Shown: piece after piece, positions 15,474-59,673 of the stretch
Numbering within the stretch: position 1 is the stretch's first letter
Layout of the letters: every line of letters starts with the position of its first letter
Assembly (NCBI GenBank): GCA_963713825.1
Contig: CAVQNG010000003.1
Location: forward strand, 1,568,001 to 1,632,000
Reading direction: 5' to 3'
Source: an uncultured Acidobacteriota bacterium
GTDB lineage: Bacteria; Acidobacteriota; Thermoanaerobaculia; Multivoradales; JAHEKO01
Length of the DNA: 64,000 bases
Position numbers and translations under genes: made by a program
The notes under the pieces: generated by a model
Told to the model about the DNA's origin: nothing
What the model saw: the letters and a program-made list of their open reading frames with translations, nothing else
Database searches by the model: none

Positions 15474-17476
15474 CCCGGTCGAATGACGCTGACGCCGAGC
15501 TGGACCGGGTGGCTCCGGAGGTGAGGGAGGGCATTCGCCTGGTGCCGGTCGTTCACGAGCGCATCGAGCTGGCCAGTGTGGCGCGAGGAGTCTTGGAGGC
15601 TGTGGAACCGGCGGCGGTAGCCGTTGAGCTGCCGACGACCCTCCGAGAGGCCGCAGCCCGGGCCGTCGGGAGGTTACCGTTGATTTCTCTGGTGATCTCG
15701 GAGGAACCGGGGGAAGAAGCGCTGGTGTGGGTCGTGGCGCCCGGTGACCCCCTGGTGGAGGCCATCCGGTGGGCACTCGATCACCAGAGGCCCTTCCTCT
15801 GTATCGACCCCGATCTCTCCTACGAGGAACGACACGCCGACCGGGTTCCAGACCCTCACGCTCTGTGGCAAATGGGCGTCGGCGACTATCTCCAGAGCCT
15901 GCGACAGGGTCTGCGCAGCGGTGGAGTGTCCGCAGTGGATGATCGCCGAGAAGCAGGAATGGCCTTTCATTTGCGACAGGCGCAGGAAGAGATCGCGGCA
16001 CCGATCGTGGCATTCGTCGGGGCGGCCCACCTGGAGGGCGTCCGATCTCGGCTCGATGGACCACTGGCACACCCGTTCGCACGGACCCAGCGCAGCCGGG
16101 TTCTGGTGCGGCACCTGGCTCCCGACAGTCTCACGGCATTGCTGCCAGACGCTCCGTTGGCACACGCCGTCTGGGAGCGGGTCCGAGAGGGTCAGGCTCC
16201 CACTGACGCGGAGCTCGGATCCACCCTCTCGCGGCGCCAGTCTGTGGTGCGCTTCGGTCTTCGTGTTATCCATGGGGAGCGGGGAAGCGACGAAGCTGAT
16301 CGGAGCGAGAGGCTCGTGGACTATGCCAGCAAGCACGGCACCCGAGAGGGCTTCGGTGGCGGAGTCGCTCCGGACAGGGCCCGGCTTGGCGGTGTTGTCT
16401 GGCGGATCGCGGCAGGATCGTACACCGAGCAGACCGGGGAGACCGTGGCCGCCTGGCAGAGGAGACTGTTCTTCGACTTTTCGAGGCGCTGTGCCAGGGT
16501 ACAAGGCAATCTGATGCCAGGTCTCTACGAATGGGTGATCGCGGGACGGGGTGTCGGTGATGACAACCTGGCCTGGGAGATCTTCGATGTCTCTCGAACC
16601 TTCCCTTGGCAAGAAGACCAGGCGGAGATCGAGACCGTTTCCGTCGATGGAGAGGAACTGGATCTCGGCACTCGCAAGCTAAGGTTTCGGCGCCGTTTCC
16701 TGCGCGTCAAGCAGCGGCCCGTTGCCATCCCCGTTCGGGAGCACCCTCATCCCGACAGCCCGGAGGATTGGTTGCGGGCTTTCGATTCGACCGGCCTTTG
16801 CTCCTATCCTCCCGAAGACCTGGTGATCGAGGACTACGGGCGTTTTCTGCAGCAGAAGGCCCTGTCGGTGCTGTCAGCCGAACGCAAGAGGACCGAGCCC
16901 TTCGTTTGTAGCCTGTTGGACGGGATCGACATCCGAGAGACACTCCGCAATGTCCATGAGGACCGGATCTATGTGGAGGAGAAGGGCCGAGTGCCGGGAG
17001 ATGCGGGTTCGGTCGTCGTCGTCTTCGACCGCGACGTGGACAACGAGCGCTACCCCTTTGCCATGACCTGGCTGGGGGAGCATGATCAGGAGTCGGACAT
17101 GGCGTTCTATGCCACGAATCCGGCAGATCAGGTGGTGGGTCCCGGCATGATGCGGGCCACCTACGGCGGGTTCGTGCTGACCCAACCGAGAGGCAGGCTG
17201 TCCGACGTCTGGTCGGATCCGGACTATCGATTCGCCCGCAGCAGGGCGGAGATCTTGCTGATGGCGGCTATCGACTACAGCCTCGAGAAGATCGTGGTGC
17301 ATCTGGCCTCAGACCCTCCCGTCGAGAGACTGCGCCAGTACGCCGCCGTCCAGGGCAAGCAGATCCTCCACATTCCCCTAGCCTCGCTGTCTCCCGTGAC
17401 ACTCAAGAAGATCCGTGTCATGCACATCCTCGCCGGCCACGACAAGCGCGCCATGGCCAAGGACTACATCTGGTGA
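15470..17476 (+). CDS. Hypothetical AAA+ partner: TraB/Tiki-like N-terminus and degenerate VWA-like C-terminus
   Basis: GTGA overlap with the ATPase; VAVELP, RREAGMA and FVGAAHL motifs; later GIDIRETLRN...VVVVFD. Confidence 0.75.
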   Translation: MTRSNDADAELDRVAPEVREGIRLVPVVHERIELASVARGVLEAVEPAAVAVELPTTLREAAARAVGRLPLISLVISEEPGEEALVWVVAPGDPLVEAIRWALDHQRPFLCIDPDLSYEERHADRVPDPHALWQMGVGDYLQSLRQGLRSGGVSAVDDRREAGMAFHLRQAQEEIAAPIVAFVGAAHLEGVRSRLDGPLAHPFARTQRSRVLVRHLAPDSLTALLPDAPLAHAVWERVREGQAPTDAELGSTLSRRQSVVRFGLRVIHGERGSDEADRSERLVDYASKHGTREGFGGGVAPDRARLGGVVWRIAAGSYTEQTGETVAAWQRRLFFDFSRRCARVQGNLMPGLYEWVIAGRGVGDDNLAWEIFDVSRTFPWQEDQAEIETVSVDGEELDLGTRKLRFRRRFLRVKQRPVAIPVREHPHPDSPEDWLRAFDSTGLCSYPPEDLVIEDYGRFLQQKALSVLSAERKRTEPFVCSLLDGIDIRETLRNVHEDRIYVEEKGRVPGDAGSVVVVFDRDVDNERYPFAMTWLGEHDQESDMAFYATNPADQVVGPGMMRATYGGFVLTQPRGRLSDVWSDPDYRFARSRAEILLMAAIDYSLEKIVVHLASDPPVERLRQYAAVQGKQILHIPLASLSPVTLKKIRVMHILAGHDKRAMAKDYIW

Positions 17477-17950
17477 TTGGGGGGTTGAGGCATCCGGTGC
17501 GTTGCACCGGCTGATCCTTGAAGGCTTGGGGGTTGAGCCGGCAGCACTTCGTGTCGGCCGTTCTTTGAGGGCCTGGGGGTTGAGACGGCCGATCGGACCA
17601 GGGATCTCCCCCGTCTGCGGTCTCACCCGACCATGCCCCTCCGACGAGGGAGACCCATGGCCCGATCTACCACCTTCGACACACATCAATCATCGGATTG
17701 CTGACTCACTCCCTACGCCCTTAAGCCCCTACTACCCTCACCGGTGCCAGAGGTTCGCGCGGGTGGTTCGACAGGGGGCGCCGAGTCGAGCGCAGCGCAA
17801 GGGCCACGATAGAGCACCACCAATGGGGCGCGATGACGAGACGATGTGGCGGCCCCCCATTGCAGTCTGAGTCGCCGACACCGTCCGCCTGCGGACCACC
17901 CGAACGGACCTCCACGCGATGATAGTCGCCAGTTCAGGACCCAAGCCCCA
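17461..17950 (+). repeat. Modular structured intergenic repeat, copy 1 (A array, B, C, D, tail)
   Basis: Aligns by eye with copies at about 25.5, 35, 47.2 and 59.5 kb; fills a convergent gene gap. Confidence 0.95.
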
Positions 17951-17996
17951 AAGATCAGCTGGAAGGGACGCCCGGCTGCTTCAGCCAGTTGAGCTT

Positions 17997-25494: not shown

Positions 25495-25836
25495 GAGGTC
25501 CGTCCGGGCGGCCCGCCGGGGGACGGCGTCGGCTACTCAGACTGCAACGGGGGGCCGCCACCTCGTCTCGTCATCGCGCCCCGTCTCCTGTGCTCTATCA
25601 AGGACCTTGCGCAGCGCTCGACTCGGCGCCCCCTGTCGAACCACCCGAACGAACCTCTGACACCAACAGGGGCATAAGGGCTTAGGGCAGTAGGGGCGTA
25701 AGTGGTGTGGATCGGCTGCTCCCTCGAGCCCCAAAGGGCGGCCGACACGGAGTGCGGCCGGTTCAACCCCCAAGCCCTCAAGGATCGTCCGGAGGTACGA
25801 CCGGACGCCTCAACCCCCAAAGGACCGACTAGGTCC
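25495..25836 (-). repeat. Modular structured intergenic repeat, copy 2 (A array, remnant of B, C, D)
   Basis: Reverse complement matches the A and D modules of copy 1; convergent gap. Confidence 0.95.
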
Positions 25837-34020: not shown

Positions 34021-34899
34021 ATGAGGGTTCACATCGTCTGTCAGAGGTGGAAGCAGGACCGCGTACTGTCGCGGTTCGCGCGGTACCTCGTCGATCGCTG
34101 GGGTTGGACGGTGAGCCGGCGTCCCGACCGCAAGGCTGATCTGAACTACTGGATTGCGTTTCTGGAATGGGAACGGTTCAAGGGCTTCGATCGCACCCCG
34201 ACCGTGGCCTTCATGACCCATCCAGAAGACGAGATCGACAACCCCGAAAAGTACCGGCTGTACTTCGACGCCGCCCGGGAAGCCGACCTGAGGATTTGTA
34301 TGAACGAAGTCAGTCGGCTGGAGCTCGAGGCTCTCTACGGCCTGTCCATGCAGGCTCCTCTTCCCCTGGACTGCGAGCATTTTCCTCTCAAATCGGCGTC
34401 GCCAGGAGGATCGCCCCGCGTCGGCTTTTCGGGCAAGGCCTATCGAAGCGGTCGCAAGGGCGAAGACCTGGCCGAGCATCTTGTCGAGGACTTCCAGGAC
34501 CGCTGCGAGTTTGCGGCCTCGGGAAAGAAGTGGCCCTGTCCGACCCGGTGGTACAGCTGGGAAGAAATGCCACAGTTCTTCCAAAGTCTGGACATCTACG
34601 TCTCTACCTCGCTGGTCGAGGGCGGGCCCATGCCAACCCTGGAGGCTCTTGCTACCGGTCTACCGGTCGTCATTGCAGCAGGCGTTGGACTGCATGACGA
34701 GCTGCCAGCCGTGAAGGGCATCTATCGGTACGAGAAGGGCAACTACGAAGATCTACGAAGAGCCCTCGATCAGGCTCTAAGCGAGTACCGCGATATTGAC
34801 CGCGAGCTTCTCCGCCAGGCGACGAGCCCCCACGCTGTCGAGAATTGGTGCGTCGCGAACCGGAGTGCCTTCGAAGATCTACTGGCTCATCGGCCTTGA
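34021..34899 (+). CDS. GT-B/GT4-like glycosyltransferase
   Basis: STSLVEGGPMPTLEALATGLPVV (Ex7E motif); start estimated. Confidence 0.8.
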   Translation: MRVHIVCQRWKQDRVLSRFARYLVDRWGWTVSRRPDRKADLNYWIAFLEWERFKGFDRTPTVAFMTHPEDEIDNPEKYRLYFDAAREADLRICMNEVSRLELEALYGLSMQAPLPLDCEHFPLKSASPGGSPRVGFSGKAYRSGRKGEDLAEHLVEDFQDRCEFAASGKKWPCPTRWYSWEEMPQFFQSLDIYVSTSLVEGGPMPTLEALATGLPVVIAAGVGLHDELPAVKGIYRYEKGNYEDLRRALDQALSEYRDIDRELLRQATSPHAVENWCVANRSAFEDLLAHRP

Positions 34900-34932
34900 G
34901 GACTTGAAGCGATTCCGCCCACTCACCCGTCC

Positions 34933-35400
34933 TGGGGCTTGGGTCCTGAACAGACAACGATCTTCGTGTGGAGGCCCGTCCGGGTGGTCCGCAGGCGGAC
35001 GGTGGCAGTTTCACAGACTTTGACGGGGGACCGCCACCTCGTCTCGTCATCGCGCCCCGTCTCCTGTGCCCTATGAAGGATCTTGCGCTGCGCTCGACTC
35101 GGCGCCCCCTGTCGAACCACCCGAACGAACCTCTGGCACCAATGGGGCGTAGGGGGTGAGTCATCTGCCGGGGTCTCGATGTGTCTCGATGGCGGTAGAT
35201 CGGGTCATGGGTCTCCCTCGTCTGAGGGGCATGGTCGGGTGAGGCCGTAGACGGGGGAGATCCCTGGTTCGATCGGCCGTCTCAACCCCCAGGCCCTCAA
35301 GGACCGGCTGGAGCTGGCGACAGCCGCCTCAACCCCAAGCCCTCAGAGACCAACCGAAGGAACTTCGGCTGCCTCAACCCTCAGGGCGGGTGGGAGGTCC
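34933..35400 (-). repeat. Modular structured intergenic repeat, copy 3 (complete; overlaps the rsmI 3' end)
   Basis: Reverse complement is collinear with copy 1, including the tail TTCAGGACCCAAGCCCCA. Confidence 0.95.
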
Positions 35401-36063
35401 AATGACTGCGGTGAACTCACCCTTGATGGATGGGCGCGTGGCCAGGTCTGCGTGGATCTCGGAGATCCGGCCACGGAGTGTCTCTTCGTGCAGCTTGGTG
35501 AGCTCACGGCCAACCGCTGCTGGCCGGTCCCCCCAGGTCTCCTGAGCATCTTCGAGGCTCGCGACGATGCGGTGGGGCGACTCGAAGAAGACCAGGGTGT
35601 GCTCGAGATCGGAGAATCGAGCGAAGAACCGTCGTCGCTTGCCTTGGCGGGGTGGGGGAAAGCCGAGGAAGCTGAAGGGATAAGGGGGTAGCGCTGAGAC
35701 GACGAGGGCCGCAAGAATCGCCGAGGCTCCCGGCACGTGCTCCACAGGGATAGCCTTCGCCGCCGCCTCTCGAACCAGCACAAAGCCGGGGTCGGAGAGT
35801 AGTGGCGTTCCGGCGTCGCTGACCAGTGCTACCTGGAGTCCGGAGTCCAACTGTTCGAGAAGGTGTGGGACTCTCTGTCGCTCGTTGTGCTCGTGAAGGG
35901 AGATCAGCCTGGCCTCGATCCCGAGGCGAGCGAGCATGCGGCCGGTATGACGGGTGTCCTCGCAAGCGACGAGGTCGGCCTCGACGAGGGTGCTCCGAGC
36001 TCGCGGTGACAGGTCTTCCAGATTGCCGATGGGAGTGGCGACGATGGTCAGCTTTCCCGGCAT
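35374..36063 (-). CDS. rsmI: 16S rRNA C1402 2'-O-methyltransferase (short form)
   Basis: ATPIGNLED, CEDTR, VSDAGTP..SDPG, FESPHR and RELTKLHE motifs. Confidence 0.96.
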   Translation of the reverse strand: MPGKLTIVATPIGNLEDLSPRARSTLVEADLVACEDTRHTGRMLARLGIEARLISLHEHNERQRVPHLLEQLDSGLQVALVSDAGTPLLSDPGFVLVREAAAKAIPVEHVPGASAILAALVVSALPPYPFSFLGFPPPRQGKRRRFFARFSDLEHTLVFFESPHRIVASLEDAQETWGDRPAAVGRELTKLHEETLRGRISEIHADLATRPSIKGEFTAVIGPPTRPEG

Positions 36064-47206: not shown

Positions 47207-47710
47207 GACCTTCGCCCTACCGGCGAAAGGTCCCGAGGGTTGAGGCGGCCGCCGTGCCTTCGGCCGGTCTATGAGGGCCTGGGGTTGAGGCGGCTGTCGC
47301 TTGCTCGAGTTGGCCTTTGGGGGCTTGGGGATCGAGACGGCCGATCGAACCAGGGATCTCCTTCGTCTGCGGCCTCACCCGACCATGCCCCTCCGACGAG
47401 GGAGACCCATGGCCCGATCTACCACGCTCGAGACACATTGAGAATCCGACTGCTGACGCGCCCCCTACGCCCCTAAGCCCTTACGCTCCTAAGGGTGCCG
47501 AAGGTTCGTTCGGGTGTTTCGACAGGGGGTGTGCCGAGTCGCGCGCAGCACAAGGGCCATCAAAGGGCAAGGAGGATGACGCGCGATGACGAGACAAGGT
47601 GGCGGCCCACCTCAATGAAGGGGAGGGGCTTGCCCCCTCCCGTGGGAGCCCGCAAGGGGCTCCCCTACAAAGCCGACGCCGTCCCCCAGCGAGCCACCCG
47701 GACGAACCTC
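47206..47710 (+). repeat. Modular structured intergenic repeat, copy 4 (carries an inserted REP doublet)
   Basis: A, B, C and D modules match copies 1 and 3; convergent gap. Confidence 0.95.
47617..47668. repeat. Inverted doublet of GTAG-family REP-like palindromes
   Basis: GAAGGGGAGGGGCTTGCCCCCTCCC followed by the reverse complement of GTAGGGGAGCCCCTTGCGGGCTCCC. Confidence 0.75.
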
Positions 47711-59443: not shown

Positions 59444-59673
59444 GACTCCCCCTCCCACCCTGAGGGTTGAGGCGGTCGGCCAAGGAGTGCCGACCGGTCC
59501 TCGAAGGCTTGGGGGTTGAAGCGGCCGGACCTGTGCCGGCCGGTCTTTGAGGTAGTGGGGCAGTGAGGGAGACCCCTTGCCCGATCTACGTACCGGCTGG
59601 GTGCATCAAGACTCCCTTAGGAGAGTCACACTACACCCCTACGCCCCTAGGCCCTTTACGCCCCTTTACGCCC
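59443..59673 (+). repeat. Modular structured intergenic repeat, copy 5 (A array, 3' arm of B, expanded C; no D)
   Basis: GAGGGTTGAGGC...GGCTTGGGGGTTGAA units, GAGGGAGACCC..GCCCGATCTAC and a CCCCTACG tract. Confidence 0.88.

Follow-up and report, generated by a model that had tools for sequence, protein, structure and literature searches.

Module D is a non-coding unit of about 170 nt that is dispersed in many copies through the genome of a sediment acidobacterium. It is probably a gene-less, non-autonomous mobile element that is copied through a folded single strand, with the fold selected at copying. Its sense strand adopts the shape of a Y, a three-way junction with covarying helices and strand-specific mismatches, the occupied sites turn over among sister species, and variants shared by several copies keep the pairing while private ones do not. 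From this last contrast we infer that copying needs the fold. The window, which is the whole stretch of 64 kb analyzed in this study, corresponds to G000:C3:1568001-1632000 in the host assembly (G000), which comprises 5.42 Mb in 38 contigs with about 61% G+C.

A total of 107 blastn matches were obtained from the host genome with copy 2 of the window as query. They chain into 98 places, 78 of them full length; discounting two identical duplicates located at contig ends leaves 76 distinct full-length loci. For alignment A1 a copy lacking 50 nt was dropped as well, so that it comprises 75 of the 78. A search with R1, a covariance model of A1, at E<=0.001 returned 96 matches, nine of which were read as antisense echoes, leaving about 87 loci including degenerate ones. 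The copies lie singly, in both orientations, with a mean spacing of about 70 kb. Contig C1 (414 kb) holds none, against about six predicted from the genome average, and may be another replicon or a mis-binned contig. Among the partial matches in this genome, lone 3'-terminal pieces (about ten) outnumber lone 5' pieces (about four). At G000:C3:766479-767980 a copy is split by a 1.3-kb insertion sequence (IS) within an extra hairpin of the P4 loop; the protein encoded by this IS has 347 aa and an rve-type integrase core. No Rfam 15 family matched the 64-kb window at gathering score, and six copies scanned at E<=10 returned chance hits alone (6-19 bits). No description of the element was found in the open-access full-text literature, and viral contigs gave no match to two core patterns.

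Four copies are present in the window (Table 1). Pattern search and reading of the sequence place them where the preliminary description of this DNA had located them, and the interior core quoted there was also recovered. The 21-nt pattern of the 5' arm, with at most three mismatches, matched six times in the window and never in 100 shuffles; the matches comprise all four 5' arms and, on the opposite strand, two of the 3' arms. The 5' arm, described there as nearly invariant, matches the quoted sequence exactly in copies 2 and 3 but not in the other two: CG replaces TT at arm positions 9-10 of copy 1, so that its P1 contains a C.A and a G.A mismatch, and the arm of copy 4 carries two changes. 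Likewise, the statement that all differences are A/G exchanges opposite T is right for the four 3' arms, which match the quoted sequences exactly, but does not extend to the stem of every copy. In 7 of the 75 aligned copies most of the P4 loop is replaced by an additional double hairpin, about 45 nt long (GGGGAGGGGCTTGCCCCCTCCC GTGGGAGCCCGCAAGGGGCTCCC; 47611-47660 in the window), a form that also occurs in the related genome G005.

Table 1. Module D copies in the 64-kb window and the parts of copy 1 (window coordinates)
Feature	Position	Strand	Basis
Copy 1, whole fold from P1 foot to P1 foot	17750..17912	+	Covariance model R1, 176.9 bits (G000:C3:1585739-1585919)
Copy 1, 5' leader: module C octamers (CCCYTANG) plus conserved GGTGCCA immediately before P1	17700..17749	+	Sequence; 63/75 copies with at least one CCYTA within 90 nt upstream
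Copy 1, P1 5' arm, pairs with 17892-17912; C.A and G.A at arm positions 9-10	17750..17770	+	Alignment columns 13-34 with 233-253
Copy 1, P2 5' strand (CA GGGGG), pairs with 17885-17891, extends P1 past bulged A	17772..17778	+	Columns 36-45 with 225-232
Copy 1, P3 5' strand, pairs with 17828-17843; two tandem G.A sites	17779..17793	+	Columns 46-60 with 99-114; 46/114 covaries C-G/U-A/G-C
Copy 1, variable hairpin capping P3; register varies by subfamily	17794..17827	+	Top rate of rare variants, 3.5%
Copy 1, P3 3' strand (GCGCGAUGACGAGACG)	17828..17843	+	Alignment
Copy 1, P4 hairpin, stem 17845-17853 with 17874-17882; loop has conserved AGUCUGAGU	17845..17882	+	Columns 116-124 with 211-219
Copy 1, P1 3' arm	17892..17912	+	Alignment pairing with 5' arm
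Copy 2	25495..25657	-	R1, 189.8 bits
Copy 3	34971..35133	-	R1, 195.5 bits
Copy 4, extra hairpin of ~45 nt in P4 loop (~47611-47660)	47501..47710	+	R1, 135.1 bits; insert in 7/75 aligned copies

As read from A1, the sense strand forms 51 pairs in five helices. The closing stem, P1, has 21-28 pairs (21 among these 51) and is continued past a bulged A by P2, a G/C helix in which columns 41/227 are G.G in 27 of 75 copies. The P3 arm contains two tandem G.A sites and bears the variable hairpin on top, and P4 has nine pairs closing a conserved loop of about 20 nt that contains AGUCUGAGUA. The arms of module D pair as had been proposed, but the structure is a three-way junction and not a simple long fold-back. 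With RNAalifold the sense strand reached -40.2 kcal/mol and its reverse complement -11.6; another run gave -50.6. Standard pairs fill 92.3% of 3820 cells in A1, against 36.6-49.8% when the 3' partners are slid by one to three columns. Thirteen pairs change on both sides, and none of 500 shuffles reached the observed values on four of five measures. Columns 46/114 covary with C-G in 40 copies, U-A in 27 and G-C in six, and at columns 50-51 with 109-110 the tandem G.A form (GA/GA) alternates with Watson-Crick AC/GU and UC/GA. A subfamily of seven copies has a different P3 sequence and retains its self-complementarity.

The mismatches give the fold a polarity. Over the 51 pairs of 75 copies there are 3153 Watson-Crick, 372 G-U and 32 A-C cells, and P1 alone (21 pairs) accounts for 1293, 230 and 21 of them, respectively. 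The split between G-U and A-C, set beforehand as the test of strand specificity, is therefore not equal in this genus. In the same cells G.A mismatches outnumber C.U by 199 to 15. Since a G.A mismatch reads as C.U on the complementary strand, this too indicates polarity. The base opposite is A or G at each of the seven P1 pairs whose 5' base is T, substantially so at five; opposite C, at three pairs, it is G in 72-73 of 75 copies. Variation between A and G opposite T combined with fixed G opposite C is what pairing predicts, and neither double-stranded inverted repeats nor mutation bias does. Mutation bias was thus ruled out as the source of the G-U excess, the purines opposite C being fixed and those opposite T variable. 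The wobble is even the majority state at four pairs, with U-G in 56, 60 and 57 of 75 copies at 18/248, 22/244 and 118/217, and G-U in 51 at 132/205.

In this genus the opposite strand also folds worse, as had been asked of a strand-specific structure. With RNA parameters 68 of the 75 copies have their lower free minimum energy (MFE) on the sense strand, and with DNA parameters 73 do. When the energy of the family fold is compared with that of its antisense mirror, the sense strand is better in 74 of 75 copies of this genus, 29 of 33 from other genera and 67 of 67 of the type found in Candidatus Multivorans. The earlier proposal that selection acts on a strand-specific single-stranded molecule, and not on the terminal inverted repeats of a duplex, is supported for this genus, in which the inner helices covary too. 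The G-U excess over A-C weakens to 59 against 22 in other genera of the family and is absent from the 67 Multivorans-type copies (30 against 33). The latter have a lower unconstrained MFE for the antisense strand in 66 of 67 copies, because their sense loops are C-rich (G-C skew -0.108) and the antisense strand gains alternative pairings; in these copies the polarity shows in G.A mismatches and in the family-fold energy. These results support a polarity that holds throughout the family and a wobble signature that belongs to this genus.

Relatives of the element were searched for in two samples of genomes. R1 detected it in 15 of 41 related genomes, namely the host and all five of its congeners, with at least 27-40 matches each among up to 65 candidates scored per genome, 8 of 19 from other genera of the family, and 1 of 16 from other families of the order. 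A second model, R2, was built from alignment A3 and scanned over 151 genomes sampled from the class Thermoanaerobaculia. The 25 positive genomes all belong to one order and are distributed as 5/5 plus the host in family f1, 1/1 in f10 and 18/23 in f8, the family that includes Candidatus Multivorans; no match was found in seven genomes from four other families of the order, nor in 114 from other orders. A pattern scan found carrier MAGs labelled, as deposited, Thermoanaerobaculia, Acidobacteria or Holophagales. Outside the genus the sequence of P1 is replaced yet still paired and the core is kept, reading GGGG..CGAGCGC..GGCGCGA.G..AGGCG..GCC..AGUCYGAG.AGC..CGCCGUCCCC. In A3 (36 copies from 10 genera), which was aligned to the model and hence leans towards the structure, 46 of the 51 pairs change on both sides across genera, and 90.8% of cells are paired, compared with 62.4% after shuffling and 38.5-44.0% after sliding. 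Conservation across these genera, all of one order, extends to the bases of the junction and the tandem G.A sites. The likeness between copies ends at the P1 foot in genera g16, g19, g15 and g13, so that module D alone is the repeated unit there, and its neighbours in them are unrelated housekeeping genes.

The P1 arms form inverted repeats of 21-28 bp at the ends of the unit, as the terminal repeats of a MITE do. If module D were an ordinary double-stranded MITE, a DDE transposase would bind these arms and the fold would be incidental. The intergenic placement resembles that of MITEs, and in this genus the unit often lies inside a larger mosaic bounded by inverted copies of another module, A. 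However, the variation of the arms fits pairing rather than end binding, being limited in the 3' arm to purines opposite T, and the inner helices covary. Recognition of the ends predicts that arms are kept and the interior is free to change, and the reverse was found between genera. Moreover, no longer element with the same ends was found around a transposase gene; no pair of arms encloses a gene except in the copy split by the 1.3-kb IS, which is of the unrelated rve type. A MITE of this kind is the least probable of the explanations weighed here, and we regard it as very improbable.

The three window sites of copies 1-3 were compared with those of the five congeners. At the copy 1 site a complete copy lies reversed in G003, G001 has no more than a 3' fragment, likewise reversed, and G004 has a fragment of the 3' arm adjoining a different fold-back. 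This other fold-back (GAGGTCAGCCCAGGGGTCAGG ... CCTGCCCCCCGGACCGACCTC; L099 2560-2700, G004:C174) replaces module D there, and its arms resemble P1 in outline. The copy 2 site is occupied in G002 and G005, and gave no match in G003 and G004, where the gaps are about 310 nt. At the copy 3 site the element is present in G004 and G005, partial in G002 at a contig end, represented by a weak match of 25.8 bits in G003, and without a match in G001. Occupancy thus differs between species, and orientation differs at one site, which requires insertion, loss or inversion. Copies common to two or three species at the same site could reflect retention rather than repeated insertion. One contig from a DNA run joins 17466 to 17990, skipping 523 nt and with them the whole mosaic between two convergent genes, and may represent an empty site in a related population.

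Copies at the same site in different species were also compared as a test of selection. Across species, the element at the copy 2 site is kept no better than its coding flank. At copy 3 (window 34600-35500 against L141, G004:C174) about 600 nt covering modules B, C and D and the end of the next gene are nearly identical between G000 and G004, with flanks about 80% alike. Judged from this pattern of identity, the tract looks like a recent recombination, and the identity at copy 3 is then uninformative on selection.

A contrast emerged when single transitions at Watson-Crick pairs were sorted by the number of the 75 copies that share each of them. Private transitions, present in one copy, lead to G-U in nine cases and to A-C in 19. 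Those shared by at least two copies lead to G-U in 25 and to A-C in three (362 against 12 cells), which differs from the private ones with Fisher p = 2e-5. Private changes arise in place and shared ones have passed through copying, so the sense fold appears to be filtered at copying while resting copies drift. The contrast rests on small numbers, and singletons in a MAG may include assembly errors. Private substitutions average 1.41 per copy over 163 columns, and gene conversion between copies could be an alternative source of this low private divergence and of the many shared variants. The sense-strand Y would accordingly be the selected feature at the step of copying to a new site, and not in resting copies. 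A fold filtered at copying rather than in place most likely means that a folded single strand of sense polarity is an intermediate of the element or is needed by it. A trans-acting enzyme would recognize the shape of this strand together with the conserved bases of the junction and loop.

Gene context was examined with a codon-usage ORF caller made for this study (4045 genes, 85.7% coding), which is crude, so the following counts are approximate. Three of the 76 copies overlap a predicted gene. Thirty-eight lie between convergent genes, 27 in tandem gaps and 11 between divergent genes. Convergent gaps account for 18% of all gaps and 19% of the intergenic length, and half of the copies is far more than these shares predict (p about 1e-9). 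The tandem-gap copies are sense to the flanking genes in 14 cases and antisense in 13. Such a placement is typical of tolerated selfish DNA. No replication-strand bias was seen by G-C skew in a hand count (39 leading, 36 lagging), which fits poorly to a lagging-strand mechanism like that of IS608.

The usual mosaic of this genus has module A at about -180 to -250, B at about -100, C directly upstream of D, and often an inverted A downstream. Module A forms a separate hairpin family, with a conserved loop (TCTTTGAGGGCTTGGGGGTTGAG) and short stems that vary by copy yet remain complementary; it occurs in the window at 17507-17547, 17554-17594, 17926-17988, 47306-47346 and 59490-59530, and its 15-nt core has 123 matches in the genome at up to two mismatches. 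Module C consists of one to seven tandem octamers CCCYTANG directly upstream of D in 63 of 75 copies (17700-17740, 25672-25720, 35134-35160 and 47455-47495 in the window). A scan for sigma-70-like promoters around copy 1 found none. No terminator adjoins this copy either, and the one terminator-like hairpin upstream is located in module A.

The location of half of the copies at the 3' ends of convergent genes would suit structured non-coding RNA genes, or cis-acting RNA elements, that serve the host in 3'-end processing or stabilizing or in protein binding and were multiplied secondarily. The wobble as majority state at four pairs and the tandem G.A sites and junction bases shared by genera of one order are also what such RNAs would show, and element sequences are present in contigs of one metatranscriptome library. 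That metatranscriptome run contained 5% of the sampled words. In the RNA-library contigs the depth is about 50 over the element and 0-9 over its flanks; the corresponding ratio is about 40-fold and about 200-fold in two DNA runs, and contigs show neither strand nor level. RNA-library coverage was therefore not used as support for expression, the DNA-run ratios being the same or larger. That the RNA ratio is no higher than the DNA ratios counts against a host function, as do the unbiased orientation in tandem gaps, the lack of an adjoining sigma-70-like promoter or terminator at copy 1, and the different sites in sister species. An RNA working in place should also keep its pairs in each copy, and the private variants show no such bias. 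We consider a host function of this sort unlikely, and copying through a folded strand remains the preferred reading.

Partner enzymes were sought with the profiles PF01797, PF00078, PF02371 and PF07282 over the 41 genomes, and none of the last three tracks the element. PF01797 (Y1/HUH) was found in 37 of 41 genomes, comprising 14 of 15 carriers and 23 of 26 non-carriers, and the carrier without it, G017, is 99% complete. In the host genome, four paralogues of about 313 aa match Y1_Tnp (HUH) weakly and contain an HUH-like motif (G000:C3:1031156-1032097, C3:1152154-1153095, C3:1296426-1297361 and C5 near 483534). No repeated DNA was found within 700 nt of these four loci. When 10 kb were checked around the three with a called gene, the nearest module D lay 8 kb from one, and none was found near the other two. 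The reverse transcriptase profile PF00078 (RVT_1) had no match in G000 (96% complete), G001, G004 (100%), G005, G017, G019 and G020. By eye, the flanks of six copies of genus g16 showed no consistent direct repeat that could be a target-site duplication.

Two of these profiles bear on a further explanation, in which the fold is an RNA cofactor of its own mobilization, in the style of an IS110 bridge RNA or a TnpB/IscB omega RNA, and module D is a gene-less derivative served in trans. Such a cofactor would be selected at the copying step, as the fold appears to be, and the fold is RNA-like with internal loops that could hold guide segments. IS110-type genes (PF02371) exist in the host genome; they occur in only 9 of the 15 R1 carriers and are absent from G019 and G023, which are 98-99% complete. 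PF07282 (TnpB) is present in none of the 15 carriers, its sole match among the 41 genomes being in G006, a non-carrier by R1. No copy was seen adjoining a gene of either kind. We consider such a cofactor highly unlikely, though a shade less so than the MITE.

For an element copied through a folded strand, that strand could be ssDNA or RNA. RNA is favoured by the majority wobble pairs, the tandem G.A sites and the complex junction with conserved unpaired bases. ssDNA is favoured by the lack of orientation preference relative to transcription and of a promoter at copy 1, and also because many carriers have no reverse transcriptase. To our knowledge, the small bacterial repeats whose mover is known all move as DNA. 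Taken together, the two kinds of intermediate seem about equally probable.

Module D works most like bcr1 and the REPINs, and it is a member of neither. The bcr1 element of the Bacillus cereus group is a gene-less, dispersed repeat of about 155 bp among the group A bcr repeats, and it shares with module D the small size, sites that are not conserved between close relatives, and a multi-helix fold with compensatory changes (PMC3184786). Transcription of bcr1 is known, and 5-bp direct repeats flank it; for module D, no direct repeats were seen in the flanks of the six g16 copies, and the RNA-library contigs cover it no more than its copy number predicts. In addition, module D resides in another phylum, forms a three-way junction, and has a core conserved across a whole order. 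REPINs are likewise non-autonomous, intergenic, numerous and persistent in their lineages, with a hairpin in ssDNA or mRNA (PMC3116915). Each, however, pairs two short REP palindromes in a simple hairpin and lies near its RAYT gene, whereas module D is a 170-nt Y. The REPIN unit is a doublet of REPs of 20-40 nt with one hairpin; module D has five helices around its junction, and none of the four PF01797 loci is a RAYT (Y1/HUH) gene flanked by its copies. The combination of an order-wide core with rewritten stems, which sets it apart from both bcr1 and the REPINs, is the pattern of a structured-RNA family.

Other mobile systems resemble module D in single respects. The omega RNA or HEARO of IS605 elements and the bridge RNA of IS110 elements have a conserved multi-helix fold of 150-200 nt, are carried on mobile DNA and are needed for its spread, features that are seen or proposed in module D too. 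However, these RNAs adjoin their own protein gene and module D stands alone among housekeeping genes. A bridge RNA lies at the non-coding end of an IS110 element, and 6 of the 15 carriers have no PF02371 match; an omega RNA lies beside tnpB or iscB, and the carriers have housekeeping genes at this place and no PF07282. Retron ncRNAs and group II introns have an adjacent reverse transcriptase, for which the seven genomes listed above, including the host, gave no match. Integron attC sites offer another likeness, in that a folded single DNA strand of one polarity is the recombination substrate and structure is conserved above sequence. They form cassette arrays of one orientation, whereas module D is scattered singly in both.

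In its boldest form, the likeness to RNA families would make the Y fold a new class of functional RNA that spreads its own gene-less DNA, either as a guide- or bridge-like recombinase cofactor or as a catalytic RNA long kept across one Acidobacteriota order. Its active or protein-binding core would then consist of the conserved junction, the P4 loop and both tandem G.A sites. We hold this to be improbable, if somewhat less so than a cofactor in the style of those of IS110 or TnpB/IscB.

Small structured repeats are common in bacteria, and what moves them and why they have their shape are mostly obscure. Module D has useful traits in this respect, with many copies per genome, a clear polarity, and relatives throughout the order whose stems are rewritten around a fixed core. 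Because of these traits, selection at the copying step can be separated from selection in place, and the data point to the copying step. The elements also matter for genome annotation, since many intervals between convergent genes in these genomes consist mostly of them, and metagenome assemblies break at them. The hunt for the enzyme and for the intermediate, ssDNA or RNA, becomes a well-posed problem in a phylum that is almost without genetics.
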